Below, in pieces: positions 2,400 through 61,359 of a stretch of DNA of 64,000 nucleotides; within the stretch, counting starts at the first letter, position 1, and every line of letters begins with the position of its first letter. This DNA comes from Syntrophales bacterium (lineage in GTDB: Bacteria; Desulfobacterota; Syntrophia; Syntrophales; PHBD01). Made by a program: the position numbers and the translations under genes. The stretch lies in NCBI GenBank assembly GCA_963668175.1, contig OY764159.1:3168001-3232000 (forward strand). The letters run 5' to 3'. A model generated the notes under the pieces. It was not told the DNA's origin. It worked only from the letters and a program-made list of their open reading frames with translations, and ran no database searches.

Positions 2400-3179
2400 C
2401 TACTTCTTCGCCGCCCTGGCCGCCGCAAGCTTTGCCTGGAGGGCATCGATGCGCTGGTGGTTGTCCTCGGAGCCGATATACGTCCTGAACAGCCATTCCT
2501 GGACCTTCATGGCACCGTCAAGGTCTTCGTCCAGAATGTGGTTCGCAAGCTGCTTCGTCTCCTTCAGGCACATACGGTCGTAGGAGGCCATCTCCTTCGC
2601 GATCGCCATGACAGACGTCAGCAACTGCCCTTCCGGGAACACCTTCGTCACGTAGCCCATCTTCTCCGCCTCGTACGCATCGTAGATACGGCCCGTCAGC
2701 GCCACTTCCTTCGCACGGCCCAGACCGATGATACGCCACAGCGGGTCCATGATCGGCGTCAGAGACAGAACGATCTCACGCTGACCGAACTTCGCCCGTT
2801 CGGACGCATACCGGATATCGCACATCAAGGTCAGGTCGAATCCGCCCGCGATCGCCGGCCCGCCAACGGCGCAGATCACCGGCTGCTCGCAGAACATGAT
2901 CGCACGGTACGCTCGGTGGAACAGCGCCGTGTAGTCCTCGTTCGAGACCTTCTCCAGCTTCCGGATGATCGTGAGATCGAAGCCCGCCGAGAAGTACTTC
3001 TCGCCGCCCGTGAACACGACCACGTTCACGTCCTGACGCTTCGCGATCTCCGTAAAGATATATTCCACTTCCTGAAGAACCTCGGGCGCCAGCGCATTCC
3101 CCTTGTCGGGACGATGGATCGTTACGGTCGCCACCTTGTCTTCCACATTCAACAGCAGATACTTCATGTCCATAAGCAT
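2400..3179 (-). CDS. Enoyl-CoA hydratase/isomerase family protein
   Basis: FSAGFDL, AIAGGFDLTLMCDIRYA, FGQRE crotonase motifs. Confidence 0.95.
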   Translation of the reverse strand: MLMDMKYLLLNVEDKVATVTIHRPDKGNALAPEVLQEVEYIFTEIAKRQDVNVVVFTGGEKYFSAGFDLTIIRKLEKVSNEDYTALFHRAYRAIMFCEQPVICAVGGPAIAGGFDLTLMCDIRYASERAKFGQREIVLSLTPIMDPLWRIIGLGRAKEVALTGRIYDAYEAEKMGYVTKVFPEGQLLTSVMAIAKEMASYDRMCLKETKQLANHILDEDLDGAMKVQEWLFRTYIGSEDNHQRIDALQAKLAAARAAKK

Positions 3180-3196
3180 ACTCCTCTATTCTATGA

Positions 3197-4336
3197 TTAG
3201 CGCAAATACTCCGCCGCAGCCATGATACGCTGGATCTCGTTTACGCCCTCGTAGATCTCCGCCAGCTTCATGTCGCGGAAGATCCGCTCCACGTTGAACT
3301 CCTTCGAATACGAAAACGCGCCCAACACCTGCATCGCGTTGCTCGCCACACGGTGGCAAGCCTGCGACACAAACAGCCGCGTCCGCGCAGACTTGAACAG
3401 GATATCCTGCTTCTGGGACTTGTGGTACGCCGTCGCATACGTATAGTAACGCGCCGCCTCCACGTCCGAAGACATCTCGCCCAGAAGCCACTGGATCGTC
3501 TGGAAACTCGTGATCGGCTTGCCACGCTGCACGCGCTCCTTCGCATACTTGATCGCTTCCTCGAACGCGCCCTGCGCCATGCCCACGCATTCCGCGGATA
3601 TGCCCAGCTTGCCGATCGCGATCTCCGTCGTCAGGATCTTGAAGCCCTTGCCCCGGTTCGCCTCGCCGCCCGTCGTGTTCTCGATCGGCACCCGAACGTC
3701 TTCAAGGACCACATCGGCCACTTCCATCCCGTTCATGCCCATCTTCTCCACCAGCTTCGGCGTCGAATAACCCTTCGCATCCTTCGGAACGATGATGTTC
3801 GTCACCTTACCGTCCTTCGCCACGTCCTTGCAGAATACAACGATGTAACCGGGAAGCGTCGAGTTCGTGATGAAGATCTTCTCGCCGTTGATCACCCATT
3901 CGTTGCCGTCCTGAACGCACGTCGTCTTGATGTTGTCCGGGTCCGATCCCGTCGACGGCTCCGTGAAGGCAAAACTCCCCACAGCCTCTCCCGCCACGAT
4001 CTGCGGCAGGTACTTCTTCTTCTGCTCCTCCGTCCCGAAGTCGTTGATCGTCCCCGCACAGAGGCAGTTCACCGAGATGTGGCCGCCGATCGAACAATAC
4101 ACCCGAGACAGCTCCTCGATCACCATCACATACTCCAGGTACGTGCTGCCAACCCCGCCGTACGCAGCAGGGTACTGTATCCCGTAAAAGCTCAGCTCCC
4201 GCATCTTCTTGATCAGCTCGCGGGGAGTACGCTTCTTCTCCTCCATCTCCGGGATCAAAGGGCGAATCTCCGTCTCCGCGAACTTCCGCGCGGTATCCCT
4301 GAACATCACTTGTTCTTCCGTCAAACCAAATTCCAT
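3197..4336 (-). CDS. Acyl-CoA dehydrogenase
   Basis: FAFTEPSTGSD, NGEKIFITN, IYEGVNEIQR. Confidence 0.96.
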   Translation of the reverse strand: MEFGLTEEQVMFRDTARKFAETEIRPLIPEMEEKKRTPRELIKKMRELSFYGIQYPAAYGGVGSTYLEYVMVIEELSRVYCSIGGHISVNCLCAGTINDFGTEEQKKKYLPQIVAGEAVGSFAFTEPSTGSDPDNIKTTCVQDGNEWVINGEKIFITNSTLPGYIVVFCKDVAKDGKVTNIIVPKDAKGYSTPKLVEKMGMNGMEVADVVLEDVRVPIENTTGGEANRGKGFKILTTEIAIGKLGISAECVGMAQGAFEEAIKYAKERVQRGKPITSFQTIQWLLGEMSSDVEAARYYTYATAYHKSQKQDILFKSARTRLFVSQACHRVASNAMQVLGAFSYSKEFNVERIFRDMKLAEIYEGVNEIQRIMAAAEYLR

Positions 4337-4381
4337 AGATTCCTCCAGTTATATGTTTAATCCAGATTCGATCCTTTTCTC

Positions 4382-5860
4382 TTAATACCAGGAACGCTTC
4401 GCACGGAAGATCCCCTTCGTCGATTCCTTCACCGGAATCCCCGCCAGCTTCTTCACCAGGTTCTTCGAATGCTCGATGTTGTGGTCGCGGTAGATAGCCA
4501 CCTTCTCGATCACGGGCGAACCCCCGCCGTGCAGCGCGTCGATCAGCTTGTGGCCGCCCCACGTCGACGTCATCATGTCCTGGAACAGACGGAACGCACG
4601 GTGCTGATCCTCGCCCGATACATCCGGATTCCTCATGATGTATTTCTCCAGGAACGGACCGATCTTCTTGTCCGCAAAATCCTCCTCCGCAGGCAGCGTA
4701 CAAGCCAAACCGCCAGCGATCGCCGCCAGGTGCTCGTACTCCTGGTAGATCGACTCGCCCGCCAGCATCCGGCCCGCGTTCACGTAGTTCGTATCCGGTA
4801 CGTACGTCCCCGAATCCGCACGCGTCGAATGGATCGCCGACGCAATCCCCGCCGCATAGATCAAATCCACGATCTGGATCATCTCCGCCAACGTATGACG
4901 AACATGGCCCGCATTGCCGATCCCGTTGTACTCCGCCGCCAGCGCCGTCGCTCCCAGAACAACCTCGGAAAGCGCCGCCTTGCAGCCCGTGTAGCTGTGT
5001 CGGTGGAACAACGCAAAATACAGCGCCGCCTTGCCCGCCTGCTCCGTCTCGCCGCACAAAAACACACGCTCCCACGGCACAAACACATGGTCCAATATCG
5101 TCAACGAATGCGAAAAACCGATGTTCGAATGCGGAGCCATCAGCTTTTGACGCTGAGGTGGATGGAACGGCGCATTCACCAGCGTCACGCCCTCCGCGTC
5201 CGCCGGAATCGCAAACGCCACCGCCCAGTCCGACTCGTCTTCCATCATGTTCCGGTAAGGCAAAAAGATGATCTCGTCCGCATACACCGACGCCGAGTTG
5301 TGCGCCTTCGCCCCGTTCACGATGATGCCGTCCGGCCTCTTCTCCACCACACGCACATACAAATCCGGGTCCTTCTGCTTCGCAGGACGCCACGCACGGT
5401 TACCCTTCGCGTCCGTCTGCGCACACACCAGACACAGGTCCTCTTTCTGCACCTTCTTCAGGTATTCCAGAAACCGCTTGTTGTACTCCGTCCCGTGCTT
5501 CTGGTCCGCATCGTACGTCGCAATCGACAGCGAGTTCAAGCCGTCCACGCCCATGCAGCGCTGGATGCAACCGCCCACTTCCTGGCAGTACAGACGCGTC
5601 ATCTTCTGCTTGTTCAAAAGGTCTTCCACGCTCTGATGGATATGCGTGTAGCGGTTGATCGTCTCGCCCGTCAGATGCGACTTCGTCACACCCACGCTCT
5701 CAAAATCCGGGTCCTTCACAAAATCGTACGTCGTCGTCATGACGTTGATGCCCCCGACGATCGACGGATCGAACCTGTCCACAAACTGCCCTCTCTGAAA
5801 TACATTCCGCCGCATCTTTGCAATGCGCTCCCTGTATTGCTTTCCCGTTATCATGTTCAT
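4382..5860 (-). CDS. abfD: 4-hydroxybutyryl-CoA dehydratase-like protein (HpaB/AbfD family, [4Fe-4S]/FAD)
   Basis: GGCIQRC and HRHSYTGCK (Fe-S ligand pattern of AbfD), QTDAKGNR, HGGGSP. Confidence 0.85.
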   Translation of the reverse strand: MNMITGKQYRERIAKMRRNVFQRGQFVDRFDPSIVGGINVMTTTYDFVKDPDFESVGVTKSHLTGETINRYTHIHQSVEDLLNKQKMTRLYCQEVGGCIQRCMGVDGLNSLSIATYDADQKHGTEYNKRFLEYLKKVQKEDLCLVCAQTDAKGNRAWRPAKQKDPDLYVRVVEKRPDGIIVNGAKAHNSASVYADEIIFLPYRNMMEDESDWAVAFAIPADAEGVTLVNAPFHPPQRQKLMAPHSNIGFSHSLTILDHVFVPWERVFLCGETEQAGKAALYFALFHRHSYTGCKAALSEVVLGATALAAEYNGIGNAGHVRHTLAEMIQIVDLIYAAGIASAIHSTRADSGTYVPDTNYVNAGRMLAGESIYQEYEHLAAIAGGLACTLPAEEDFADKKIGPFLEKYIMRNPDVSGEDQHRAFRLFQDMMTSTWGGHKLIDALHGGGSPVIEKVAIYRDHNIEHSKNLVKKLAGIPVKESTKGIFRAKRSWY

Positions 5861-17181: not shown

Positions 17182-17628
17182 ATGAACATGTTCGGATTAA
17201 GAACGGGAAGATTCGGAGTCGATACGTTGAGGGAACTGCAGAATCTGCAGAGGGACATCAACCAGGCATTTTCGGGAATAAGTCCCCTGCCGGCGGTGCG
17301 CCAGTATCCGGCCCTCAATGTGTGGGAAAGCGGCGGAGAGCTGATCTTCACGGCCGAGTTGCCTGGCATTGACCCTGAGAAGCTGGACATCTCCGTCGTC
17401 AACGACACCCTGACCCTGAAGGGCACCAGGGATCATGTGGCACTCAAGGAAGGAGAAGCCTTTCACCGCCAGGAACGCAGCACGGGGCGATTCTCCCGAA
17501 CGGTCGGCCTGCCGTTTACGGCCGATGCCGCCAGGGTCAACGCCGTCTATAAGAAAGGCATCCTGACGATTACGGTGCCGAGGGCGGAGAAGGAAAAGCC
17601 CAAAAAGATAACGATCAGTACCGAATAG
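17182..17628 (+). CDS. Hsp20/alpha-crystallin small heat shock protein
   Basis: AELPGID, ERSTGRFSR, AVYKKGILTITVP; RBS AGGAGG. Confidence 0.95.
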   Translation: MNMFGLRTGRFGVDTLRELQNLQRDINQAFSGISPLPAVRQYPALNVWESGGELIFTAELPGIDPEKLDISVVNDTLTLKGTRDHVALKEGEAFHRQERSTGRFSRTVGLPFTADAARVNAVYKKGILTITVPRAEKEKPKKITISTE

Positions 17629-17644
17629 AGAGGAGGCATGAACC

Positions 17645-18049
17645 ATGGCACAGGAAGCGAAGGAAACCGCCAAACAGGAAGTGCAGCAACCGTCGGGCAC
17701 GGAGCGCACGAGGACAAAAAAGGTCTACGTGCCGGAGGTGGATATATACGAGACGAAGGACAGCATTGTCCTGATAGCGGATTTGCCGGGCGTGGACGAG
17801 AAATCCGTGGACATCGTCCTTGAGAAGAACGTCCTGACGATTACGGGTGCGGCCGGGCCGGTTGCGTATCCGGGCTATAGCGTGACGTACTCCGAATACG
17901 ATACGGGCGACTACCAGAGGGCGTTCACGATAAGCGATGAAGTCGACCGCGACAACATCGACGCCGCCGTCAAAAACGGCGTCCTTACGATAACGCTCCA
18001 CAAAGCGGAGAAGGCCAAGGTCAAGAAGATCTCCGTAACGACTCATTAG
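17645..18049 (+). CDS. Hsp20/alpha-crystallin small heat shock protein
   Basis: PEVDIYET, ADLPGVD, VKNGVLTITL. Confidence 0.95.
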   Translation: MAQEAKETAKQEVQQPSGTERTRTKKVYVPEVDIYETKDSIVLIADLPGVDEKSVDIVLEKNVLTITGAAGPVAYPGYSVTYSEYDTGDYQRAFTISDEVDRDNIDAAVKNGVLTITLHKAEKAKVKKISVTTH

Positions 18050-18072
18050 TATTGCAAATCATCTCTTCGTCA

Positions 18073-18125
18073 CGGCGGCGGGAAGAAGGGTATACGCCAT
18101 ACCTCCCTCTCTCCCGCCGCTTTCG
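18073..18125 (+). terminator. Probable terminator after hsp20 pair
   Basis: GCGGCGGGA...TCCCGCCGC followed by TTT. Confidence 0.5.
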
Positions 18126-18309
18126 TCTCTCAGGTTAATTGAAGCGAAAAATCAGGTTTTTCCCGATTGCACGGCAAGGGAATCATTTCTTATGGTTTAT
18201 TGTGTTATGCCTGTGAGAACAGACTTCCCCGGGCAACACGCCGTTCGAGGCAGGCAGGACATCTTCAAATCCCGCCCGCGCCGTCATCTCAGGTAAGGAG
18301 ACCTTCGCT

Positions 18310-19704
18310 ATGTCCGAGTTGATTGTCATCACGCCCGACGACGTTTATAACAGAGTCCGAACGGGGACAGCCCTCCTGGTCTGCGCCTACGACGAGGAAG
18401 AGAAGTTCCTGAAAATCCGCCTCGAAGGTGCGATTTCCCTCAAGGAGCTGGAAGCGCGCCTTCCCGATCTTCCGAAAGACCGGGAGATCGTTTTCTATTG
18501 CGCCTGACCGGAGCAGGCCACTTCCGTCCGTCGGGCGGAGCAATACCAAAAGCTCGGGTACACGGCCGTCAAGATATTGCGGGGCGGGGTGAAGGCATGG
18601 GAGGCGGCCGGACTTCCGCTGGTTCCCCAGGAGAAATCCGCTCCGAAAGCGCCCTCGAAGCAGGAACGGAAAGCGGCGGCACGCAGAAACGGAGAGAAAA
18701 AGAGCATCAATCTGGCCCTGCAGGGAGGCGGCACGCACGGCGCATTCACCTGGGGCGTCCTGGACCGCCTCCTGGAGGACGACCGCATCCATATCGAGGC
18801 CATCAGCGGCACCAGCGCCGGGGCGATAAATGCGACGATTATCGCGGACGGCCTCATGGAAAGCGGCAGGGAGGGCGCCCGCCGGGCCCTGGAAGGATTC
18901 TGGTGGTCCATCAGCCATGCGGCGCAGTTCAGCCCCATCAAGCGGACGCCCCTGGACGTCCTCACGGGCAACTGGAACCTGGACCGTTCGCCCAGCTATC
19001 TCTTCTTTGAAGTGATGGAACAGCTTGCCTCCCCCTACCTTCTGAATCCGCTCAACCTCAACCCCATAAAAACGCTGCTCGCCAGGCAGGTCAATTTCGA
19101 ACGGGTCCGCCAGTGCGACGTGATGAAGGTCTTTATCTCCGCGACCAATGTCCGCACAGGCCGGGTGAAGCTCTTCGAACGGACGCAATTGACCCTGGAC
19201 ATGGTCATGGCTTCCGCCAGCCTCCCCTATCTCTTCCAGGCGGTGGAAATCGACGGCGAGGCTTACTGGGACGGAGGCTACTCCGGAAACCCCGTTCTCT
19301 ACCCCTTTGCCTACCAGTGCACGTCCAAGGACGTCGTAATCGTCCAGATCAACCCCATGTGCAGGAATACCGTCCCCAAAACGGCCCATGAAATCCTGAA
19401 CCGGATCAACGAGATCACATTCAACGGTTCGCTCATGAAGGAACTCCGGGCCATCGAATTTGTCGGCCGGCTCCTCGATTCCGAGAGTGTGGATCCCGTC
19501 CGCTACAAGAAGATGCTCCTCCATGTGATCAACGCGGAAGAGGAACTCAAATACTTTAACGCTTCCAGTAAATTCAATGCGGAATGGGGTTTCCTGACCC
19601 ACCTGCGGACACTCGGCCGCCTGGCGGCGGAAAAATGGCTGGATGCGAACTACGACGCGATAGGCAAACGGTCGTCGGTGGATCTGCGCTCGCTTTTCGA
19701 ATAA
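18310..19704 (+). CDS. Putative selenoprotein: rhodanese-like domain (CxU, Sec66 at TGA 18505-18507) fused to patatin-like phospholipase
   Basis: Single frame: ...REIVFYCA-TGA-PEQATSVRRAEQYQKLGYTAVKILRGGVKAWEAAG completes the rhodanese fold, then patatin GGGTHG, GTSAG, DGG; hairpin follows the TGA. Confidence 0.85.
18505..18540 (+). promoter_or_regulatory. Bacterial SECIS-like element
   Basis: Stem TTCCGTCC/GGGCGGAG (18522-18540), apical loop GTC beginning with G, 22 nt after the UGA. Confidence 0.7.
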
Positions 19705-19708
19705 ACCG

Positions 19709-20686
19709 CTAGGAACGATCCTCTTTGAAGATGGCCGCCATCTTCTTTTCGTGCCAGCAGTTGAAGGGAATGGTCTTGAAAAAGCCGCAGTGCCCCCCGT
19801 ACTTCTGGATGGCAAGCGTCAGGTTTCTGCTTCTCCCGAGACCGCGGATATCTTCGATAGGAACAACCGGATCGTCCTCGGCGGCAATGATGGTCACCGG
19901 GACATCGAGGTCCCCGAAGACATCGCCCAAGAGCGTATACCGGCTGAAGTAATCCCGGAAATCATCGAACTCGGGATAATAGGCCATGACGGCCTCGGTC
20001 ATCCCCAGGCAGGTCTTCATCCGGAGGACCTCGTCGAATTGGTACCGCTCGGGGAAAAGTTCCTGCTTCGTCCGGAGGGAGCGTTTCCACTTCCACAGGA
20101 AATGATAGCGGTATCCCCTGAATCCGTTGTCGATAGCGACGGTGGCCTTGTACGGGTCCAGCGCCGGGCTTATGGCGACCACGTGTCGCAGGTTGTCTAT
20201 CTTCACATGGGAATGGCGAAGGGCGATGCGCAGCGCGAAGTTCGCCCCCAGGGAAAAACCCGCCAGATAAAAGGGACGGGACGGGGCGATGCCGGCCACG
20301 GCGCGCACGGCGGTGAAGGTTTCGTCAAGGAGGGCGCCGTGAAAAAGCCCGGCGTTCAAGTCGTGGCTCGGACCGTGGTCGCGCAGGTTCAGCCTGAAAA
20401 CGTCGTAACCCCTCCCGTAGAGATACTCGCCCGCCGAGACGACGTAGGCCGAATCGGCGCTGCCTTCCCAACCGTGAATAATGGCCACCGTTCCCGCCGG
20501 CTTGATGTGGCGATGCTTCGAATAGATCCCTAACAGGCGGACGCCGCCTCCGGCCTGGACGATCATCCCCCTGGCCGATTCCTGCATCCCGTTTCCCCGG
20601 AGCTTCCGGAGGCGGGAAGAGGCAAAAATGGTCTGCAGGTGGCGGTTCCGGGACCCGTGCCGGGGTGTCAGGTTTTCTTCCGTCAT
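19709..20686 (-). CDS. Alpha/beta hydrolase (YheT-like)
   Basis: HLQTI, HGWEGS, GFSLG nucleophile, DDPVV, GGHCGF. Confidence 0.92.
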   Translation of the reverse strand: MTEENLTPRHGSRNRHLQTIFASSRLRKLRGNGMQESARGMIVQAGGGVRLLGIYSKHRHIKPAGTVAIIHGWEGSADSAYVVSAGEYLYGRGYDVFRLNLRDHGPSHDLNAGLFHGALLDETFTAVRAVAGIAPSRPFYLAGFSLGANFALRIALRHSHVKIDNLRHVVAISPALDPYKATVAIDNGFRGYRYHFLWKWKRSLRTKQELFPERYQFDEVLRMKTCLGMTEAVMAYYPEFDDFRDYFSRYTLLGDVFGDLDVPVTIIAAEDDPVVPIEDIRGLGRSRNLTLAIQKYGGHCGFFKTIPFNCWHEKKMAAIFKEDRS

Positions 20687-43744: not shown

Positions 43745-45226
43745 ATGAACGAGGAAAAGAAGACACATCTCTACGAGTCCATCGCCGATCAGGTGTCCCA
43801 TCTGATCGCCCGCGGGACTTTTCGCCCCGGGGATCGCATTCCTTCCATCCGCGAGCTGAGCCGGCGGATGTCCGTCAGCATGACGACCGCCGCGACGGCC
43901 TACCGGCTGCTGGAAATCAGGGACGTCATCGAGGCCCGCCCCCAGTCGGGATACTATGTCCTTCCGCTTTCCCTGCACGGAAAAGGAAGAAGCTTGATCG
44001 CCCGGGAAATGCTTCCGGGCCGTGACAGCACGGCCGATCGTACTTCCGATACGGAGCGGCCCGCGGACATCAGCCCCACCGATGTGAGCATGGACAAACT
44101 CGTGACGATGATCCTGGAGGATGCCATGAACACGGATCTGGTGCAGTTGGGCACCACGATCCCCAATCCCGATCTTCTGCCGATAAAAAGAATCAGCCGG
44201 TGCCTGACATCGGCCGTCCGCAGGCGCAATTTCCAGAGCGTCTCCTACAGTTTCCCGGGGCTGGAGGCGCTCCGTATCCAGATTGCGAAGCGCGCCACCG
44301 TCGCCGGCTGCGCCCTGACGCCCGAAGACATCATCATCACCAACGGCTGCCAGGAAGCCGTCTTCCTGGCCCTGACGACCATCTGCAAGGCGGGCGACAA
44401 CGTCCTGATCGAGTCCCCTGCTTTCTTCAACCACCTGCAGGCCATGGAGGCGCTGGGTCTTAAAGTCGTCGAAATCCCGTCTCATCCGCAGCACGGCATC
44501 AGCATCGACACGCTCCGGTATGTCCTTGACAATACCCCCGTCAAGGCATGCCTCCTCGTATCCAATTACAGCAATCCGCTGGGAAGCTGCCTGCCGGACG
44601 ACAAGAAAAAAGAACTCGCAGGACTTCTCGCCGCCCGCGATATCCCGCTTATCGAAGACGACATTTACGGAGACATCTGCTTCTCTTCGCATCGTCCCCG
44701 GGTCGTGAAGGCCTTCGACGAGAAGGGACTCGTCATCCTCTGTTCCTCTTTCTCCAAGACGCTAGCGCCGGGTTTCCGCGTGGGCTGGACGGCGCCGGGC
44801 CGATTCGCGGCCCGCATCTCCTATACGAAAATGATACACAACCTGGCTACGGCGACGCCGCCGCAAATGGCCATTGCCGACTTCCTGGCCGGCGGCGGCT
44901 ACGACCGCTTTCTCCGCAGCATCAGGCGGATTTACGCCCGTCACGTCTTCCTCATGGGCCGCGCCGTCATTGAACAATTCCCCAAGGGCACCATCGTCTC
45001 CCGTCCGGCGGGAGGATTCTTCCTGTGGGTGGAGCTTCCCGGCGGGGCCGATGCCATTCTCCTTTACGAAAAGGCCAGAAAGGCAGGCATTACCATCGCG
45101 CCGGGGCCGATATTCACCGCCCGGCAGAAATTCCGCAACTGCATCCGCCTGAGCGCCTCCGTCTGGAACGAGAAAATCGCTCAAGCGGTCCGGACTCTCG
45201 GCGAACTCGCAAGGGATATGGTTTAA
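43745..45226 (+). CDS. MocR/GabR family regulator (GntR HTH + PLP aminotransferase-like domain)
   Basis: PGDRIPSIRELS, IEDDIY, SFSKTLAPGFRVGW. Confidence 0.95.
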   Translation: MNEEKKTHLYESIADQVSHLIARGTFRPGDRIPSIRELSRRMSVSMTTAATAYRLLEIRDVIEARPQSGYYVLPLSLHGKGRSLIAREMLPGRDSTADRTSDTERPADISPTDVSMDKLVTMILEDAMNTDLVQLGTTIPNPDLLPIKRISRCLTSAVRRRNFQSVSYSFPGLEALRIQIAKRATVAGCALTPEDIIITNGCQEAVFLALTTICKAGDNVLIESPAFFNHLQAMEALGLKVVEIPSHPQHGISIDTLRYVLDNTPVKACLLVSNYSNPLGSCLPDDKKKELAGLLAARDIPLIEDDIYGDICFSSHRPRVVKAFDEKGLVILCSSFSKTLAPGFRVGWTAPGRFAARISYTKMIHNLATATPPQMAIADFLAGGGYDRFLRSIRRIYARHVFLMGRAVIEQFPKGTIVSRPAGGFFLWVELPGGADAILLYEKARKAGITIAPGPIFTARQKFRNCIRLSASVWNEKIAQAVRTLGELARDMV

Positions 45227-45347
45227 TACCCCGCAGCGAATCGCCGCCCCGCAAGAATACGATCCTTTCAGGCGTCATCTCCCGCTACCTCCTGAACGCT
45301 GAAAATACTTGAACATTTTCCCATGCGGTATTTGCCGTTCATAATAC

Positions 45348-45360
45348 TTGACTTAGTCAA
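45348..45360. promoter_or_regulatory. Palindromic MarR operator candidate
   Basis: TTGACT-T-AGTCAA overlapping the putative -35 upstream of marR. Confidence 0.55.
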
Positions 45361-45385
45361 TGACTTATGCAATTATATTGTCCTT

Positions 45386-45856
45386 ATGACTCGAAAGAAG
45401 GCCCCGGCCCGTCCGGATATCCAGCGGCGTGCGGCCCCCGAACCGTTATTGCTGCGCGAGGTCATGAGGACCCACCAGGTCCTTATGAACGGTTTTTCCC
45501 GCGAAGTCGGCATGCCGGCATCGCGCGTCGCCCTCATGCGCCTTCTGGCTTCCGCGCTGCCGGACGATGTAGGCATCATGGACCTCGCCCGACGGCTGGG
45601 GATCAATGCCGCCGCCGTCACGCGGCAACTACAGGAGATGGAAAGCGAACGGCTCGTCCTGCGCCGCCCGGACGCCCGGGACGGCAGGCGCTGCAATGTC
45701 AAGCTGTCCGCTAAAGGGCTGAAGCTTTTTCAGACGATCCAGAATCGCAGTCACGAGTTGGAACGTTCACTCGCCTCGGCCATCGGTCCCGGCGAGATGA
45801 CAGCCGCCGCCGATGTCCTGGCCAGGCTGCGCCGATTCATCGAGGAACTGCGATAA
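45386..45856 (+). CDS. MarR family regulator
   Basis: LARRLGINAAAVTRQL, D.RDGRR wing. Confidence 0.92.
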   Translation: MTRKKAPARPDIQRRAAPEPLLLREVMRTHQVLMNGFSREVGMPASRVALMRLLASALPDDVGIMDLARRLGINAAAVTRQLQEMESERLVLRRPDARDGRRCNVKLSAKGLKLFQTIQNRSHELERSLASAIGPGEMTAAADVLARLRRFIEELR

Positions 45857-45876
45857 AATAATAAAAGGAGATTGCC

Positions 45877-46221
45877 ATGATAAGAACCAAGAAGAGATTC
45901 GACATGCGGGCATTTGTCACCCTGATGATCGCCTTTTGCGCCCTGGGCCTTCCCGTTACGGGCATTGCCGGCCATATCTGCGGGTTCTCGCCCTGGACCG
46001 CAGCGCGGCAAACCTGGATGGTCGCCCACAGCGCCCTGGGCCTGATCTTCATCGTCTTTTCGATCCGGCATGCCATCATGAATCGGCGCACCTTGTCGAA
46101 CTATATTCAGGGCGTCGCCACCCGGCTTCCATCATTGAGCCGCGAGGCGGCTCTGGCCGGCGCAGCCGTTGCCCTGATCCTCCTGCTCTTCACGGGACAC
46201 GCCATCCACGCAGGCGGGTGA
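45877..46221 (+). CDS. Small membrane protein with His in TM helices (DUF4405-like)
   Basis: 3 TMs, W...H, H...N. Confidence 0.7.
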   Translation: MIRTKKRFDMRAFVTLMIAFCALGLPVTGIAGHICGFSPWTAARQTWMVAHSALGLIFIVFSIRHAIMNRRTLSNYIQGVATRLPSLSREAALAGAAVALILLLFTGHAIHAGG

Positions 46222-46293
46222 TCCGGCCTCGGCAGTTTTCACGGGCGGCGGCAGACGCCGTGCGTGGGCCAACAACATTATCTTCCGGCGGTC

Positions 46294-46322
46294 TTGACAA
46301 GCGGAGGCGGGATATTCATAAT
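46294..46322 (+). promoter_or_regulatory. Sigma70-type promoter
   Basis: TTGACA-N17-CATAAT. Confidence 0.55.
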
Positions 46323-46379
46323 GGATTGCGGGCTTGCGCCTGTACCGTTTCCGAACCGTTTTAAGATGGAGGTAGAGTT

Positions 46380-47588
46380 ATGAGCACACCGAAGACCATT
46401 CAGACGGAAGACCGTTATTCGCCGCCGTTCTTCAAGAAAATACCCGTATCGATCGAGCGGGGCGCAGGCGTCTATGTCTGGGACGAGGAAGGCAACCGCT
46501 ACCTCGATTTCACGTCGGGCTGGGGCGTCACCTGCCTGGGCCATGCCCATCCGGCGATCACCGCCGCACTCCTGGAACAGGCCGGCAGGATCATGCAGAA
46601 CCCCGATTCGGGGCTGACGTACTCGCCTGTCCGCGCGAGGCTCCTTGAACTCCTGGGGGAGATCATCCCCCCTCCCCTGACAAGGATATTCTTCTCCAGC
46701 AGCGGCGCCGAGGCGAACGACGCCGCCATCAAACTGGCGCGGAAAGTGACCGGACGGCTCGACGTCATCTCCATGGAACAGAGCTTCCACGGCCGGACGA
46801 TCAGCACGGCTTCCGCGACGGGACAAGCCAAGCACCGCGAGAAGTTCAATCCCCTGATGCCCAACTACCGCTTTATCCCCTACAACGATCTCGGGGCCCT
46901 GAAGAAGGCCCTGGACGGCAAGGTGGCGGCCCTGATCACGGAGCCGATCCAGGGAGAGGGCGGCGTTGTCGTCCCGGCGGACGACTACCTCCGGGAGGCC
47001 GGACGCCTGTGCAAGGCCAACGGCACCCTTCTCATCGTCGACGAGATACAGACCGGGTTCTGCCGGACCGGCCCCATGTTCGCCAGCAGCCCTTCCGGGG
47101 CGGAGGCGGACTTCATGACGATGGCGAAAGGCATTGCCGGGGGCTTCCCGTTCGGCGCCTTTGCCATGACGGAGGCCGTGGCCGCTAAACTGGAACAGGG
47201 CGATCATGGGGGAACCTATTGCGGCAACCCCCTCGGCTGCGCCGTGGCCTGCGCGGTCATCCGGCATCTCATCGACAACGACATCCCGTCGTCCGTCGCC
47301 GCGACAGGGGCATTCGCCCTCGGGCGCCTGCGGCAGTGGATGGAGACTTACCCGGAGAGGATCGCCGACGTCCGGGGCAAAGGACTCCTTATGGTGATCG
47401 AGTTCCGGGACGAAAAGACCGCCGCCGACGTGGCCGCCGAATGTCTCGGCCGGCGTCTCTTCGTCAGGCAGACGCAGGGACGGATGATCAGGATTTTCCC
47501 CGCCCTGAACATCAAGCACGAAGAGATGGAGGAGGGACTGCTCCTTCTGGAAGAGGCCGTTTACCATACGATCCGCAAGAGCAGCTGA
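46380..47588 (+). CDS. argD: Class III aminotransferase (acetylornithine aminotransferase-like)
   Basis: SGAEAN, FHGRT, EPIQGEGG, DEIQTG, AKGIAGG, HGGTY. Confidence 0.85.
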   Translation: MSTPKTIQTEDRYSPPFFKKIPVSIERGAGVYVWDEEGNRYLDFTSGWGVTCLGHAHPAITAALLEQAGRIMQNPDSGLTYSPVRARLLELLGEIIPPPLTRIFFSSSGAEANDAAIKLARKVTGRLDVISMEQSFHGRTISTASATGQAKHREKFNPLMPNYRFIPYNDLGALKKALDGKVAALITEPIQGEGGVVVPADDYLREAGRLCKANGTLLIVDEIQTGFCRTGPMFASSPSGAEADFMTMAKGIAGGFPFGAFAMTEAVAAKLEQGDHGGTYCGNPLGCAVACAVIRHLIDNDIPSSVAATGAFALGRLRQWMETYPERIADVRGKGLLMVIEFRDEKTAADVAAECLGRRLFVRQTQGRMIRIFPALNIKHEEMEEGLLLLEEAVYHTIRKSS

Positions 47589-48099
47589 CGGGCCGGAATA
47601 CTTCCCGACCTGCGGCAAAGCGAACCCAGGGGAGCGGGGAGAAGGGCACCATGCCTGCCGCCCGCCTTGGGTCGTGGAATTTCTGTTCGCCCTTTTCGAG
47701 ACGGGGCGTTTATGCCGTCTATCGCTTCAAGGGCTTTATCCAGAGCCCGGTCGTCCATGAATTCTTTATCATTTCCGCTTAATAGGATTATCTGGTACGC
47801 ACCGGAAACATCACCCGCCGGCCCACTGAAACAGTAATCTGATCCTATTATTTCATTAAAACGTCATCATTCCGTCATAAATCTGTAGCAATTAATTGTC
47901 ATACTATGTATAACTTAATCGGGCGCCCGCATGTGCGTTTAACGGCCGCCGTCGTCGGTCGGTTGAACCGAATCGGGACAGCAGCGACGCAAACCGGGCG
48001 CGGAAGATCGACACCATGTTGCAGACACGGGAGGGAGCCCTGCGTATAGGAAAGCGGAAAGAGGAAACAGTTGTGAATGTGAACAAGGAAAATGGGAGA

Positions 48100-49932
48100 A
48101 TGATTATGAAGAGGAGATCGCTAGGTTTCAAGTTGGTTCTGGGAGGATTGCTCGTGTCGTTGTTGCCGCTTCTAATCGTCGGGTTGTTCGCCGTCATTCG
48201 ATCCGGAAATGTGCTGGAAAAGATGTCGGCCAGTGAGGAGACGTCCGTGGCCAAGAGCCTGGCATCCATGGCCCAGGTAGCCCTGGAGAATCAGTTGAAG
48301 ACGGTCCAGTCCCTCGCCGCCGAAGAGTCCGTCAGGGCCGCGGCGGAAAAGGCAAGGGGCGGGCAAGAGGAGGCCTTAGAGGCGTTGCAGAGAAGGCTTG
48401 AGCAGGCGCACAAGGCCATGGGCGAGGACTACGATCAGTTTGCCTTCATCAATGCCGACGGCGTGATGACGGCGGACACCCTGCACAAGGGGAAAGGCAC
48501 CAACCTTTCGGATCGCGCGTATTTTAAAGACGCAAAAGCGGGAAAGGCCGCCATCGGTCAGGTCGTCAAATCGAAGGTGACGGGCAACGTGGCCGTTGCG
48601 GCCGTTGCCCCCGTTATGTCGCCGTCCGGCCAGTTCGCGGGCGCCGTTCTCGGGATGATCAAGATGGATTACCTGGCCAGCAAGATTACGGCCGTCAAGA
48701 TGGGAGAGACGGGTTACGCCCTCGCCGTGGATGATAAAGGCGTCGTCGTCGCCCATCCAAAGAAAGACCTCGTGCTTTCCATGGACGCATCCCGTGAGAA
48801 AGGCATGGAACAATTCATCGCCAAGGCCGTGCGGCAGGAAACGGGAATGGAAGCCTACGTCTTCGGCGGCGTGAAAAAATCGGCCGCTTTCGCGCCCGTG
48901 CCCGTCGCCGCATGGTCCGTCATCGTGACGCAGAACGACGACGAACTGTATGCCCCGGCGCGGCAGATGAAATACATTATCATGGTCTTTTCCTTCGTCG
49001 CTGTCGCGGCGACCGTGTTGGCGGTCGTTCTCTTTGTCCGCGGAATCAACCGCCGTCTCAACCGTATCGCCTCCGACCTGAACGAAATGTCCGGCCAGGT
49101 GGCGGCCGCGGCGAGCCAGGTGTCGGCGGCGAGCGTCTCGCTGGCGGAAGGGACCTCCGAGCAGGCGGCAACGCTGGAAACCACATCGGCCGCCATCGAA
49201 GAGATGGCTTCCATGACACGGCGTAACGCCGAAAGCGCCGGCGAGGCCAAAACCCTCATGAACGCCACCCGGGACGCCGTCGAACGGGTGAACGGCCAGA
49301 TGGACGAAATGGCGACGGCCATCGTCGAAGTCACCAGGACGAGCGAAGAAACGGGCAAGATCATCAAAACCATCGACGAGATAGCCTTCCAGACAAATCT
49401 TCTGGCCCTCAACGCCGCCGTGGAGGCCGCCAGGGCCGGGGAGGCGGGGTCCGGATTCGCCGTCGTCGCCGAAGAAGTCCGCAACCTGGCGCAACGGGCT
49501 GCAACCGCGGCAAACACGACGGCCTCGCTTATCGACAACACGATCAAGGTCGTGGCGAAGAGCGCCGTCCTTACGGAACAGACCCATGAGGCCTTCAAGG
49601 ACAACAGGGACATGTCCCTGAAGATCGGCACGCTCATCGACGACATAGCCGTCGCATCGGATGAGCAGGCCCAGGGCATCAACCAGATCAATTCCTCCGT
49701 CCAGGAAATCGACAAGGTGACGCAGCAGGCGGCCGCCAACGCGGAAGAGTCGGCCTCGGCGTCGGAGGAAATGAGCGGCCAGGCGGAAAAACTCAGGGAA
49801 GTCACGGCGGAACTGCACGCCATGATCCGCGGGTCGAGCAACGGAACGGCGGACGCCGTCGGACGCCTGCCCGGTGTCGCATCGATTGCAAAAAAACTGG
49901 ATTGGAAACGTCCGCTGAGGATCGAAGGTTAG
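48100..49932 (+). CDS. Methyl-accepting chemotaxis protein with Cache domain
   Basis: 2 TMs; [34 protein letters not shown]. Confidence 0.96.
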
Positions 49933-50033
49933 CGCTCGTATCGTCCGGGCCGGCCGATTTGCGGGTGCAGCCGTCAGGCGATTGCCCCGGCCCTCTGCCC
50001 GGAGAGCGTGACAAGTCGGAGGGATATTGAAAG

Positions 50034-50073
50034 AAAGGCCCGGCCGTCCTCAGGACGTGCCGGGCCTCTTTTG
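50034..50073. terminator. Terminator between MCP and SDR genes
   Basis: AGGCCCGGC...GCCGGGCCT followed by CTTTT. Confidence 0.65.
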
Positions 50074-50149
50074 CCGAGATGTGCGTCGATCGTCCTTCAC
50101 GGCCCGGAAAAACCCGTCCGCCGGAGAAGGATCGCATCCATGGATACGC

Positions 50150-50908
50150 TCACGGATAGTTCTGACCCGTGGGACGGATCATGATCTCATTCACGTTGAC
50201 ATGCTGCGGCAGGCTGAGGAGCCAGACGATGCCGTCCGCGATGGATTGAGGCTCCAGCAGCTTGCCGAAATGGGCAATGCCCTTGCCGAAGTTCTCTTCG
50301 TCGTATCCCGCCACGGCCTGGAATCCGCTGACGACGATGCCGGGCATGACCAGCGAGACCCGTACGCCGCTGGAACAGACTTCCCGGCGAAGTCCCTCCG
50401 CAACCGCCGAGATGGCGAACTTGCTCGAACCGTAGAAATCGCTGAAGGGCGAAATGTTCCTCCCCACGACCGACCCGAGGGCGACGATGTCGCCCGTCTT
50501 CCGGCCGACCAGGTAGCGTCCGGCCATACGCATCAGGTGCGCGGCGCCGAGGACGTTCACATTATACAAGTCACGCCACTGCGCCTCGTCGCTGTCGAGG
50601 ATGCCGCCCGCCAGGCCGCGGCCGGCGTTCACGATGACGATGTCGTATTTTCCCCCGCCCCCGGCCCAGGCCAGGGTCCGTTCCAGAAGCAGGTCGATAT
50701 CGGCCGGAACGGCTGCGTCTCCCGCAACGGCCAGCGCTTTGCCTCCCCGGCCGACGATTTCCGCCGCCAGATCCCCCAGGGGGTCCTTGCGCCGGGCATG
50801 AACGACCACGGCCGCACCCGCCTGCGCCAGGCTCAGGGCAGTGGCCCGCCCTATTCCGGAACTGGCGCCCGTCACAATCGCCGTCTTGCCCGCTAAAAGT
50901 TGATTCAT
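50150..50908 (-). CDS. SDR family oxidoreductase
   Basis: TGASSGIG, NAG, YGSSK. Confidence 0.94.
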   Translation of the reverse strand: MNQLLAGKTAIVTGASSGIGRATALSLAQAGAAVVVHARRKDPLGDLAAEIVGRGGKALAVAGDAAVPADIDLLLERTLAWAGGGGKYDIVIVNAGRGLAGGILDSDEAQWRDLYNVNVLGAAHLMRMAGRYLVGRKTGDIVALGSVVGRNISPFSDFYGSSKFAISAVAEGLRREVCSSGVRVSLVMPGIVVSGFQAVAGYDEENFGKGIAHFGKLLEPQSIADGIVWLLSLPQHVNVNEIMIRPTGQNYP

Positions 50909-51413
50909 TTTTTTGTTCTCCTTTCCTATAGATGCCTCTACTCGCAATTACAGATGAATTCCGCGTTCCTGCTTTTCGCATGTATTTTCAGGAACGGTCC
51001 GTCTCGATCGTTCCCAAAGAACGTTTATGCATCGTTACTATTGTAGCCGTCCGGCCTTCCTTCGAGCAAGGAAAATTTAAAACCCATTCTTCCTTGACGT
51101 ATGTGATGAGGCCAATTATGATTTTTTGAAACGAAGATGTTTGCCGGGCAAGCATCGCCCCAAACGCTCAGGCCGATTATGGCCGAGGAAAAGCACCAGC
51201 CCGGCTGCATCCTGAGTCGATTCCGCAGGCGGCCGGCAGACGGAAGTGCCGCGGCATCAAGCTAATGGAGACGGAGAGGCGCAAAAAGGCGGCATTTTGG
51301 CTCCGAATGTGATACAAATCGGGGGACGCAGCGGGTGGCGGATCAGCCGCCGGACCGTCCCGGGTTACACGCAGGATACCGTTTGACGAAGTCGAAACAG
51401 GAAAGGCACCTCC

Positions 51414-52742
51414 ATGACGAACCAGGATCGGCATAATGCATCCCTCGAAATCCCCATCGACGCAGCGTACCTTCCCGTAGCCACGGCGTTCGTTGAAAAC
51501 GCCGCAACGGCCATGGGTCTGGATAAACCCGAGGCCCTGTCGCTGACGCTGGCCACGGAGGAGATCATCACTTATCTGTGCCGCAAATCGGCGGGTGGCC
51601 GGACCATCAGGCTCCAGTGCCGGGGCGGCGTCTATTACGTGGCGGAGGAACTGACCTTTGCCGCCGGAGACTTTGACATGCGGGCCTTCAACCTGACGGC
51701 GCCGGCGTCCTTCGAAGACGAATCCGACGAGGGCGAGATGGGGCTTCTGATCGCCTCCCGCGTCGTGGACGAGGTCGATCTCCATGAGGACAGTACCGGC
51801 ATCCGCCTCGTCCTGAAGAAGGAAAAGGCCTATCCGTCAGCATCCGGTGACGACACCGCAAAAGCGCCGCCCGGCCTTTACGACGTTATCGTGCCCGATC
51901 CGGAGTTGCTGAAATATTTCATCCGCCTTCTGAATGGCGGGGCGGACAAGTCGCATTTGCCGACGGACTTCATATACCCCGGAAAAGTGGCGGACATGGC
52001 GGCCTCAGGCGAATACGGCGCCGCCGTGGCCTGCGACAAGGGCGGTCGCATCGGCGGCGGCATCCTATGGGAAATCGGCACGGGAAAAGCGAAAATGTGC
52101 CAATGCTTCGGCCCTTATGTTTTTGTGGGAGGCGCTGAAAAGGACCTGGCGGAAGCGCTCATGGATTTCTGTATCGGCGCCGTGGCGAAAACCCAGGCCA
52201 TAGGTATCTTCAGCCGTTATCCCGCCCGGAATTTCCCCGTAGATTATTTCGAAATGATCGGCAGCCTCGAACTGCCTATCGGCAGCGGCGGTGCGATGGA
52301 ATCGGTCCCCATCCACTTCCGGCAGCTCGAAGAGGACCTGGGCAGCGTCGCCTGGACCCATCCTGCCCTCGAACCCTTTCTTCAATCGACGTACGAGCGC
52401 CTGAGCTTCGCCCGGGAAACGATCGCCGTCCATGAGGAAGGCGAAACGGCGGCGGCATCCTCCGTGCTGTCCGTCCGGTTCGAACGCACCTCCGGCTACG
52501 CTTCGTTACGGCCCCTTTGGCCCGGCAAGGATATGGCGGAAAACATCGCGGGCCATCTGCGGATACTCCGGGACGAGGGCATTCCTGCGGTCTTCTTCGA
52601 AATGGACATCGGCCGCTCCTGGCAGGTACGCTTTACGCCGGCCCTCCTCGAAAGCGGCTTTACGCCCAGCGTCCTGCTCCCCCACGGCGGCGAGGGGGAC
52701 GTGGTGATTTTCCAGCACCTGCCCGAGGACCGGCGCCCATGA
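51414..52742 (+). CDS. Protein with N-terminal anti-sigma/HATPase-like domain and C-terminal GNAT-like region
   Basis: LTLATEEII..., EMGLLIASRVVDEV (RsbW-like, degenerate). Confidence 0.7.
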   Translation: MTNQDRHNASLEIPIDAAYLPVATAFVENAATAMGLDKPEALSLTLATEEIITYLCRKSAGGRTIRLQCRGGVYYVAEELTFAAGDFDMRAFNLTAPASFEDESDEGEMGLLIASRVVDEVDLHEDSTGIRLVLKKEKAYPSASGDDTAKAPPGLYDVIVPDPELLKYFIRLLNGGADKSHLPTDFIYPGKVADMAASGEYGAAVACDKGGRIGGGILWEIGTGKAKMCQCFGPYVFVGGAEKDLAEALMDFCIGAVAKTQAIGIFSRYPARNFPVDYFEMIGSLELPIGSGGAMESVPIHFRQLEEDLGSVAWTHPALEPFLQSTYERLSFARETIAVHEEGETAAASSVLSVRFERTSGYASLRPLWPGKDMAENIAGHLRILRDEGIPAVFFEMDIGRSWQVRFTPALLESGFTPSVLLPHGGEGDVVIFQHLPEDRRP

Positions 52743-53863
52743 ACCGCCCGCCGCTGCATACGCTCCTGCCCGAATACATCAAGCAGTTCGAGCCCTATAT
52801 TCCGAGCAAACCCGACGCGGAGCTCATAAAGCTGTATCGCTGCAGCCGCCTCCATCGCCTCAACAACAACGAAAACGCCCTCGGTCCGCCGGAAGCGGCG
52901 CGGGAGATCATCCGGCGCTTTCCGCCGCCCGGGGCCGCCGTCTATCCCAGCGGGGACTCCTACTACCTGCGCCAGAAGCTCGCAGCGAGGTTCGGCAAGG
53001 ACCCCGACCGGTTCATCGTCGGCAACGGCGCGAACGAGGCGATCGCCTTCGTCATCAAGGCCTTCTGCGAGGCGGGGGACAACATCGTCACAGCCGACAA
53101 AACATTCGCCGTCTACGAATGGGTTGCCCGGTTTTCCGGTTTCGAGGCCAGGATCGTGCCCCTGAAAGACCAGACATTCGACGACGAAGGCATGCTAGCC
53201 GCCATCGACGGCAGGACCAAGGTCGTCTTCCTGTGCAACCCCAACAACCCCACCGGGACCTACTGGAGCACGGACCGCTTGACGCGCTTCCTCGACCGCG
53301 TCAATAACCGCCTGATCGTCGTCGTGGACGAGGCGTACTGCGAGTTCGTGGAAAAAGACGACTATCCGGACGGGATGGCGCTGATGGAACGCTACCCGAA
53401 CCTCGTCGTCTTCCGCACGTTTTCCAAGATGTACGGCCTCGCGGCGCTGCGGATCGGCTATCTGGCAGGGGACATGGACGTGGTGGACGCCGTCCGGAGG
53501 ACGTGCATCGTCTATTCGGTCAATGCGCTGGCCCAGGAGGCCGCCATGGCCGCTCTGGACGACGACGAGCACGTCCGGCGGAGCAGGGACCTTGTCCGGG
53601 AGGGCAAGGCGTACGTGAAGCGGGAACTGGAAAGGATGGGGCTTTCCTATGTTTGCGGCGAGGGGAATTACATGATGATCAAACTGCCTATGAGCGATAC
53701 GCTCGCGTACCGGAAACTGATGGCCCGGGGGATCATGGTGCGCACCATGACCACCTTCCGCTTTCCCAACTACATCCGCCTGACGATTTCCACCCCGGAT
53801 GTCATGGAGGCGTTCGTCGCCGCCCTGGAGACAACCGTCGGCCGGCACCGGAAGCAATCCTGA
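52739..53863 (+). CDS. Histidinol-phosphate aminotransferase-like PLP enzyme
   Basis: NENALG, CNPNNPTG, DEAY, RTFSKMYGLAALRIGY. Confidence 0.9.
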   Translation: MNRPPLHTLLPEYIKQFEPYIPSKPDAELIKLYRCSRLHRLNNNENALGPPEAAREIIRRFPPPGAAVYPSGDSYYLRQKLAARFGKDPDRFIVGNGANEAIAFVIKAFCEAGDNIVTADKTFAVYEWVARFSGFEARIVPLKDQTFDDEGMLAAIDGRTKVVFLCNPNNPTGTYWSTDRLTRFLDRVNNRLIVVVDEAYCEFVEKDDYPDGMALMERYPNLVVFRTFSKMYGLAALRIGYLAGDMDVVDAVRRTCIVYSVNALAQEAAMAALDDDEHVRRSRDLVREGKAYVKRELERMGLSYVCGEGNYMMIKLPMSDTLAYRKLMARGIMVRTMTTFRFPNYIRLTISTPDVMEAFVAALETTVGRHRKQS

Positions 53864-53875
53864 CGCGGTCCCGGT

Positions 53876-57485: not shown

Positions 57486-57592
57486 GCTGTCATTTATCCT
57501 TCCGTCGGCGGCATCCCGCCCTTCATCTTCCTTCCCTGTTTATACCATACCCGGGCATTTCTGTCGTCCCCAATCGGCGGACCGCCTCGCCC

Positions 57593-58792: not shown

Positions 58793-59055
58793 GGTTTCCT
58801 CTTCCGGTTCGCGCAGCGTATCGCCGCAGGTGCAGGAGAACGGCCGGGGCTGTCCCCTTCCCTCACCGTCTTTACGGGACGACGGTAAGACCTTTTCTTT
58901 TGACAAAGCAGGGATGCTCCGTTATATCTGTCGAGCCTCCGGCGACGATCGTTCCATACCACGAAAGGCGGGAAAATGACACGTTCAATCGACCGGGAAA
59001 GACCGGACGGCCGATACATCCTGCCGCAAAGACGGGAAAGGAGCGGTGCCACAGC

Positions 59056-61353: not shown

Positions 61354-61359
61354 AACCAT

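Follow-up and report, generated by a model that had tools for sequence, protein, structure and literature searches.

A predicted selenocysteine-containing rhodanese fused to a patatin-like esterase, concealed by an in-frame UGA codon in a Syntrophales genome

A 64,000 bp segment of a Syntrophales bacterium genome (contig OY764159.1 of assembly GCA_963668175.1, positions 3,168,001 to 3,232,000; hereafter the window, in whose numbering coordinates are given) contains two adjacent open reading frames (ORFs) on the forward strand which, we conclude with good confidence, form one gene, spanning 18310-19704 and coding for a recoded selenoprotein of 464 residues. Sequence comparisons indicate that the TGA at 18505-18507 between the two ORFs is very probably a selenocysteine (Sec) codon, located in the active-site loop of a rhodanese domain that is joined by a linker to a patatin-like serine esterase domain. 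That the inserted residue is Sec rather than another is our inference, as are the selenium dependence, the esterase substrate and the regulatory role proposed below.

Gene structure and predicted protein

The first ORF has 65 codons and runs from the ATG at 18310 to the TGA at 18505-18507, and the second, of 375 codons, runs from a TTG at 18577 to the TAA at 19702-19704 and encodes the patatin domain. Both are transcribed rightwards in a single frame with their starts 267 nt apart, and the TGA is the sole intervening stop, as a preliminary description of the locus had noted. The read-through product is 464 residues long (...DREIVFYCA-U66-PEQATSVRRAEQYQKLGYTAVKILRGGVKAWEAAG..., then a Lys/Ala/Pro-rich stretch, then the patatin domain), and the proposed coding sequence, 18310-19704 from ATG through TGA as Sec66 to TAA, is collinear over its full length with relatives in two other genomes, designated L001 and L002. 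A Shine-Dalgarno-like box, AAGGAG (18295-18300), can be read 9 nt 5' of the ATG, and purine-rich boxes also precede the ATG in L001 and L002. The TTG at 18577-18579 is the start given by standard ORF calling; it corresponds to residue L90, within the rhodanese fold, and no Shine-Dalgarno-like box lies ahead of it. A protein cluster at 93% identity, P0002, begins at the same point. The first Met after residue 66 in the read-through frame is M184; this bears out the earlier statements that the patatin domain has no in-frame ATG before it and that the called TTG is inside the rhodanese fold.

The rhodanese domain occupies residues 1-105 (18310-18624, forward strand) and is recognised by Pfam, by an AlphaFold2 model and by fold matches. 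The Pfam Rhodanese match (PF00581, residues 8-99, 40.0 bits against a cut-off of 22.2) spans the TGA, and alignment with the tandem rhodanese 6mxv places C64 at the loop Cys of both 6mxv domains and U66 two residues further on, in a loop that is two residues longer than that of 6mxv; both results agree with the earlier placing of the TGA at the active-site loop. On this alignment the canonical catalytic Cys is kept and a predicted Sec is added two residues later in the active-site loop, so that C64-A65-U66 (TGC GCC TGA, 18499-18507, forward strand) forms a C-x-U motif. The best NCBIfam match of the rhodanese part is NF041203 ('rhodanese_LYCAU, rhodanese-related (seleno)protein'), with residues 39-104 aligned to model positions 56-123 of 126, and the YCAU motif of that family is present as FYCAU at residues 62-66.

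An AlphaFold2 model of the 464-residue protein, built from a 58-row alignment, has a mean predicted local distance difference test score (pLDDT) of 90.7 and a predicted template modelling score (pTM) of 0.76. The pLDDT is 91-98 over residues 1-100, including the Sec site, and 94 for residues 61-70. The modelled rhodanese part superposes on sulfurtransferases of a single domain, among them GlpE (1gmx), with which it has a template modelling (TM) score of 0.75 normalised by the target and 2.5 Å over 103 columns. A Lys/Ala/Pro-rich linker follows at residues 106-130 (18625-18699, forward strand), marked by low pLDDT (59-70 over most of residues 101-130) and low conservation (12% amino acid identity to L001).

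The patatin-like serine esterase domain, together with a C-terminal helical extension, comprises residues 131-464 (18700-19701, forward strand) and is identified by Pfam, by its motifs and by its fold. The Pfam Patatin match (PF01734, residues 135-329) scores 87.8 bits against a cut-off of 27.7. Patatins are defined by a GGGx(H/R/K)G oxyanion motif, a GxSxG nucleophile elbow and a catalytic Asp in DG(G/A); here these are GGGTHG at 139-144, GTSAG at 167-171 (S169, codon 18814-18816) and DGG at 321-323 (D321, codon 19270-19272), all of whose residues are invariant in 15 sequences. The domain had earlier been described as intact, and this is confirmed.

Conservation of the UGA codon and its flanks

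Reference genomes, one for each species, were scanned with a query alignment made up of the window protein plus 14 relatives, giving at least 602 matching stretches of which the best 80 were kept. Among these 80, the query is covered at full length only in L001, a Smithella metagenome-assembled genome (MAG; 68% identity), and in L002, the MAG of an uncultured member of the Desulfohalobiaceae (53%). In each, a frame that begins with ATG contains one TGA, at the aligned codon, after which it stays open through the patatin domain, the sequence at the site being IIFYCAUPEQATS in L001 and IIFYCAUPQEATS in L002. The TGA is therefore at the same codon in all three full-length DNA copies.

Comparison of the window with L001 shows fewer nonsynonymous (pN) than synonymous (pS) differences per site both in codons 1-65 (pN 0.243 vs pS 0.852) and in codons 67-89 (pN 0.125 vs pS 0.683), the latter lying between the TGA and the called start and outside any called ORF. 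Synonymous sites are near saturation (pS 0.68-0.85), and the low pN on both sides of the TGA therefore argues that both sides are translated in this frame.

A wider sample of the rhodanese domain was obtained by comparing residues 1-110 with 1.84 billion representatives using phmmer, which gave 3164 hits at E <= 0.001; residues at the Sec site were counted in the best 150. C-x-C-P is found at the site in 33 of these 150, and a further characteristic is that 12 of them end exactly after ...FYC(A/S), seven of those being 65 residues long. The preliminary description had looked to homologues with either TGA or Cys at this position, and both are found.

A candidate SECIS hairpin

A hairpin resembling a Sec insertion sequence (SECIS) lies downstream of the TGA at 18522-18540 (forward strand) and was identified by folding and by comparison with L001 and L002. 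Its sequence is UUCCGUCC-GUC-GGGCGGAG, with the stem at 18522-18529/18533-18540 and the loop at 18530-18532. The distance from the UGA is 14 nt to the stem and 22 nt to the loop, of which G is the first base; the earlier figure of 22 nt for the start of the stem-loop thus holds for the G-initiated loop and not for the stem. Bacterial SECIS elements are stem-loops just 3' of the UGA with an apical-loop G about 16-37 nt from the codon, as is found here.

The hairpin is located at +19 to +35 from the U of the UGA in all three sequences, with the loop G at +26. The window and L001 have stems of 8 bp and L002 one of 7 bp; the loops are GUC, GGC and GUA and the folding energies -10.1, -8.6 and -10.5 kcal/mol for the window, L001 and L002 respectively. 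All pair cells are formed (21/21), as against at most 47.6% when the 3' partner is shifted by 1-3 columns, and compensatory substitutions are seen at two of the seven pairs (C-G to U-A; C-G to A-U). In L001 the compensatory changes are both at synonymous third positions (UCC to UCU paired with GCG to GCA), and in L002 the peptide differs at the hairpin (ASM for VRR) while the helix is kept. The hairpin on its own is moderately unusual, and on these comparisons the weight of the hairpin evidence is its conservation in relatives. No Rfam family reaches its gathering score anywhere in the 64 kb window; this is uninformative for SECIS, as we know of no general bacterial SECIS model in Rfam.

Recurrence of the fusion

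The 120 best cluster representatives for the read-through protein were retrieved, 118 of them scorable. Sixteen of the 118 patatin representatives start inside the C-terminal half of the rhodanese domain (e.g. MTSVRRAEQYQ..., MTSVRRAEQYQDFGY..., MELGFNKVKILRGGFNAWEKAGFP..., MAEKFLQAGYTNVKALEGGVDAWKK...), a split mis-call like that in the window which is seen in representatives down to 56% identity. One of the 16, P0011, is the Smithella ORF of L001, a public 384-residue 'patatin-like phospholipase family protein'. Of this gene (L001:4285-5682), only the last 384 codons, beginning at TTG 4528, are annotated publicly, and the 65-codon N-terminal part and the TGA are omitted. Full-length fused copies are present in at least two reference genomes besides the window, and the fusion, whose recurrence the preliminary description had left to be checked, is thus recurrent.

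In a tree of the patatin domain 16 fused rows fall within a clade of 22 rows, and three further fused rows fall in a separate clade with L002; well-supported branches force at least four changes of fusion state. The six unlabelled rows in the 22-row clade may be fused as well, with their starts called too far downstream, and either one fusion event or two is possible on the sequences compared.

No Cys-type rhodanese-patatin fusion was found in a word search (proteins of 255-812 residues, shared 5-mers needed), which gave only a rhodanese-CBS protein and the 93% relative. A patatin domain is likewise seen in none of the best 150 of the 3164 rhodanese hits; distant fusions could escape either search. 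In the 15 multi-domain relatives examined, the rhodanese domain is paired with CBS pairs, DUF2383, cupin, AhpC or further rhodanese domains. Among the loci L019, L034, L040, L070 and L078, the two that were viewed individually, L019 and L040, have apparent N-terminal extensions of their tblastn matches (from query residue 47 or 48 on) which are the upstream BdhA gene and not a rhodanese.

The patatin domain and its gene neighbourhoods

The nearest solved folds for residues 131-464 are PlpD and the lipases CapV and CapE of cyclic-oligonucleotide-based antiphage signalling systems (CBASS; 5fya, 8zr9, 9ioq; Foldseek E of about 1e-9 to 1e-10), at 16-21% identity, and patatin itself is also matched. 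PlpD and CapV/CapE have the Ser-Asp dyad architecture in common with this domain, whereas their cyclic-nucleotide sensor or secretion context has no counterpart in the window fusion. The CBASS CapV-type model NF041079 (cut-off 200 bits) is missed, with 31.3 bits over the N-terminal 50 residues only.

Stand-alone proteins of about 345 residues, with 62-65% identity to the patatin part, occur very commonly among Alpha- and Gammaproteobacteria. Gene neighbourhoods were compared in 81 sources, namely 80 loci and the window, scoring genes with similarity to the short-chain dehydrogenase of L019 at a distance of up to 400 bp. In 37 of the 81, a BdhA-like gene is found within this distance of the patatin gene, mostly directly upstream and on the same strand (e.g. 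L019:5434-7329), and the two dehydrogenases that were checked are 3-hydroxybutyrate dehydrogenases (NCBIfam TIGR01963, 366 and 384 bits, cut-off 307). In L002 (6001-8960) the gene order is the fusion gene, a 4 nt gap, bdhA, and then an alpha/beta hydrolase.

This adjacency of stand-alone patatin relatives to 3-hydroxybutyrate dehydrogenase suggests a role in mobilisation of polyhydroxybutyrate (PHB). A bdhA-patD mutant of Legionella pneumophila is reported to over-accumulate PHB, or to fail to break it down (PMC4549902, citing Aurass 2009), bdhA and patD having been deleted together according to the account in that paper. The gene order of L002 resembles the Legionella bdhA-patD operon, as does the bdhA adjacency in the 37 sources. 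The stand-alone patatins of PatD type differ in having neither a rhodanese domain nor a UGA, and are likened to the fusion here by the patatin family and, for L002, by the adjacent bdhA.

Weighing the selenoprotein reading against alternatives

Several observations weigh against a selenoprotein, or against parts of the picture drawn here. The match to NF041203 scores 55.1 bits, under the curated cut-off of 115, and the N-terminal half of the domain has no match to that model. The Sec site isn't strictly Cys or Sec in the best 150 homologues, with Ser in 10, Trp in three and other residues in a few; the Trp homologues, P0137, P0138 and P0272, may have either a true TGG or a TGA translated under a TGA=Trp code. 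With three DNA copies, the shuffle control for covariation in the hairpin is non-significant, as 60 of 500 shuffles reach the observed score. Of the 1845 TGA triplets on the two strands of the window, 25 (1.4%) have a comparable hairpin after them (a perfect stem, -10.1 kcal/mol or lower, and a G at either of the first two loop positions, at 16-37 nt from the triplet), and the fold of the whole of 18505-18570 is unremarkable (z = -0.56). There is no bdhA near the fusion gene in either the window or L001.

The window contains no selA, selB, selD or tRNA-Sec, nor a tRNA gene of any kind. In-frame TGA bridges flanked both before and after by 45 or more open codons number 101, 30 of which were scanned against NCBIfam with TGA read as U; none has a family match across the TGA, and there is thus no independent sign of Sec use in the window. 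The matched bridges, considered as further selenoprotein candidates, are adjacent genes that happen to share a frame. The window Tex protein is closest to named Syntrophus, Syntrophales and Smithella proteins (70-77%), and 19 selenoproteins are listed for Syntrophus aciditrophicus (PMC1794560, Table 3); by analogy, the lineage appears rich in Sec users.

Four other readings can be considered, which jointly hold a minor share of the probability. The first, which we find improbable, is that the UGA is recoded by means of the SECIS hairpin but as Cys, through a selC*-type tRNA(Cys) and a SelB paralogue. Mukai et al. (PMC5389517) report such selC* tRNAs from deltaproteobacteria as well as from a composite Smithella genome, in some cases having an opal anticodon and accompanied by a second selB; one of the three DNA copies of the fusion gene is from Smithella, and Cys is a common residue at this site in homologues. 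However, a complete Sec apparatus is reported in the genomes with selC in that study (PMC5389517), and C-x-U rhodaneses are catalogued as selenoproteins.

Next, and also at a low probability, two products could be made, a 65-residue peptide that ends at the UGA at 18505 and a patatin translated separately from the TTG at 18577 or from a GTG at 18589. This is how standard ORF calling divides the window gene and 16 related clusters, the public Smithella annotation is of a 384-residue patatin-like phospholipase (P0011), and the common stand-alone patatins of the family evidently function without a rhodanese. Set against this, the rhodanese fold would be cut into two halves of which, from the model, neither is expected to fold alone, and codons 67-89, which would be untranslated, are under purifying selection at the pN and pS given above. 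Moreover, no ATG codon lies between residues 66 and 184, the TTG lacks a Shine-Dalgarno-like box, the called starts vary among relatives as would be expected of arbitrary first start codons, and the TGA and the frame are kept at 53% identity. No start codon with a ribosome-binding site is present ahead of the patatin domain, and independent translation of that domain, which the preliminary description had named as a way for its reading to fail, is accordingly disfavoured.

A pseudogene or assembly error, in which a fusion gene has been killed by a nonsense mutation, is close to refuted. An in-frame stop is the usual sign of a pseudogene, and Trp (TGG, one base from TGA) is seen in three homologues, but the same TGA is present in three independent genomes of two orders at saturated synonymous divergence, purifying selection is evident on both sides of it, and no Cys-type rhodanese-patatin fusion that might be its source was found in the word search or among the best 150 of the 3164 hits. 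Furthermore, 12 representatives at 50% identity stop at the same residue and 16 downstream fragments begin after the TGA. The same split in independent records excludes a read error, and each of the sequence-level tests by which the preliminary description proposed to refute a selenoprotein has come out in its favour.

Lastly, we give very little credence to TGA acting as a sense codon (Trp or Gly), genome-wide or free of context, or to near-cognate read-through without a SECIS, since, although Trp is at the site in three homologues that were possibly called under a TGA=Trp code, TGA is the commonest stop in the window and ends 23 of the 45 Pfam-supported ORFs, which excludes genome-wide reassignment, the conserved hairpin argues for directed recoding, and the window is from a Syntrophales relative, a group not known to us to reassign TGA.

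Relation to known families

The rhodanese domain belongs with selenoproteins that are already catalogued. A 2026 review distinguishes five forms of Sec rhodanese, including 'form 3, NF041203, CxU' and the rhodanese/DsbD fusion TsoB (PMC13188914), and a 2022 review gives the 'COG0607 form 2, CxU' of Zhang and colleagues (PMC9312934); as presented in these sources, the C-x-U rhodanese family is predicted from genomes alone. The window domain resembles NF041203 form 3 in the (F/L)YCAU-P context of the active-site loop and in having Cys homologues with C-x-C-P. It differs in that the NF041203 family is a single domain of about 126 residues, whereas the window domain is the N-terminus of a 464-residue protein with a patatin esterase.

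TsoB provides a precedent for a Sec-bearing rhodanese domain in fusion proteins (PMC13188914), but differs in its U-x4-U motif, its two Sec residues and its membrane thiol-disulfide partner, and the match of the window protein to it reaches 22 bits where the cut-off is 805. Among full-length homologues, those closest to the rhodanese domain are Cys-type rhodanese-CBS fusions (P0122, P0133, P0149, P0196 and P0209; 43-47% identity), which have FYCACP at the site (in the pairwise alignment with P0122) and a low-complexity linker after the domain. They differ from the window protein in having Cys in place of Sec and, as partner, a CBS ligand-sensing pair and no esterase. Their existence indicates that rhodanese domains of this subtype serve as N-terminal modules in combination with other domains.

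Because the C-x-U rhodanese is an already catalogued selenoprotein family, only its fusion to a patatin is new. Neither 'patatin' nor 'phospholipase' occurs in the text of the two reviews (PMC13188914 and PMC9312934), no bacterial Sec-rhodanese/patatin fusion was found among the papers listed as pairing patatin with selenocysteine, rhodanese or selenoprotein, and NCBIfam release 20.0 has no model of the fusion. To selenoprotein specialists the fusion would be plausible and, in principle, unsurprising.

A proposed mode of action

In the best-supported scenario, translation starts at the ATG at 18310 and Sec-tRNA(Sec) is brought to the UGA at 18505 by a SelB-type factor that binds the hairpin (18522-18540). 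The ribosome would then finish the rhodanese fold with its C64-A-U66 site, the flexible basic linker and the patatin-type esterase with Ser169 and Asp321. Failure of Sec insertion would yield the 65-residue fragment only, and the esterase would therefore depend on UGA recoding and hence on the supply of selenium.

The esterase probably hydrolyses PHB-derived esters or oligomers, or other lipid esters. The Sec-rhodanese would most likely be a redox- or persulfide-sensing module that tunes the esterase through a reversible Cys64-Sec66 selenenylsulfide or through a persulfide; a sensory or regulatory role fits because the closest Cys-type relatives place the same rhodanese before CBS sensor domains. 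More specifically, and only tentatively, since we think it rather unlikely as stated, the Sec-rhodanese could be a working partner of the esterase. Its C64-x-U66 would then alternate between a selenol/thiol and a selenenylsulfide or persulfide form and so switch the esterase on or off, mobilisation of storage polyester or lipid thereby following redox or sulfur state and selenium; or else, more boldly, the acyl group would pass from Ser169 to the Sec, forming a selenoester from which a thiol acceptor receives it.

Other features of the window

Two tandem Hsp20/alpha-crystallin genes (148 and 134 residues) at 17182-18049 (forward strand) lie directly upstream of the selenoprotein gene, from which they are separated by a 260 nt spacer. 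Neither L001 nor L002 has this neighbourhood, the upstream gene being a penicillin-binding protein in L001 and a cytochrome P460 in L002. A scan of 17900-19900 gives no sigma-70 consensus promoter, the consensus being weak evidence in this phylum. Downstream of the fusion gene is a convergent YheT-like alpha/beta hydrolase, within the end of which a consensus scan places a terminator-like hairpin and T-run at 19727-19745 (forward strand), 23 nt past the stop. A second terminator-like element, a 10 bp hairpin followed by TTTTCTATT, is at 18465-18490 (forward strand), inside the coding sequence, with its end 15 nt short of the Sec codon; chance is the probable explanation.

Among the various other genes, we note a molybdenum hydroxylase cluster at 53876-57485 (reverse strand) with FAD-binding, 2Fe-2S and molybdopterin subunits. 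The small subunit is matched best by glyceraldehyde dehydrogenase gamma and by XdhC; its score with the 4-hydroxybenzoyl-CoA reductase gamma model is 173 bits, under the cut-off of 257.8, and there are weaker matches to selenium-dependent hydroxylase models. The cluster is part of a region of about 16 kb (44001-60000) in which the G+C content rises to 0.60-0.645 from about 0.55-0.57, and which also contains a MocR-type regulator, aminotransferases and a chemoreceptor. This may be an acquired block.

A row of genes at 2400-5860 (reverse strand) encodes an enoyl-CoA hydratase, an acyl-CoA dehydrogenase and a protein of the 4-hydroxyphenylacetate 3-hydroxylase/4-hydroxybutyryl-CoA dehydratase family, which fits the short-chain acyl-CoA metabolism of a syntrophic degrader of fatty acids or aromatics. 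At 60725-61359 (reverse strand) a Gp49/HigB-like toxin-family ORF (120 residues, Pfam PF05973) overlaps by 4 nt a downstream ORF of 91 residues on the same strand, and the two are likely a toxin-antitoxin pair.

Significance

The combination of a Sec-rhodanese with a patatin esterase would be a new domain architecture for the bacterial selenoproteome. It also accounts for a recurrent mis-annotation, at least 16 public protein clusters being cut in the same way as the Smithella copy, and the conserved TGA and hairpin could be used by annotation pipelines to mend such gene models. The C-x-U rhodanese family gains a partner that can be assayed, with esterase activity as the read-out for Sec, Cys and Ser variants. 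If the Sec-rhodanese does act as a working partner of the esterase, this would be the first selenoprotein among patatins and lipid hydrolases, and a case in which a whole catalytic domain is gated translationally by a Sec codon. For the syntrophic Thermodesulfobacteriota in which the gene is found, it would link selenium to carbon storage or lipid turnover.

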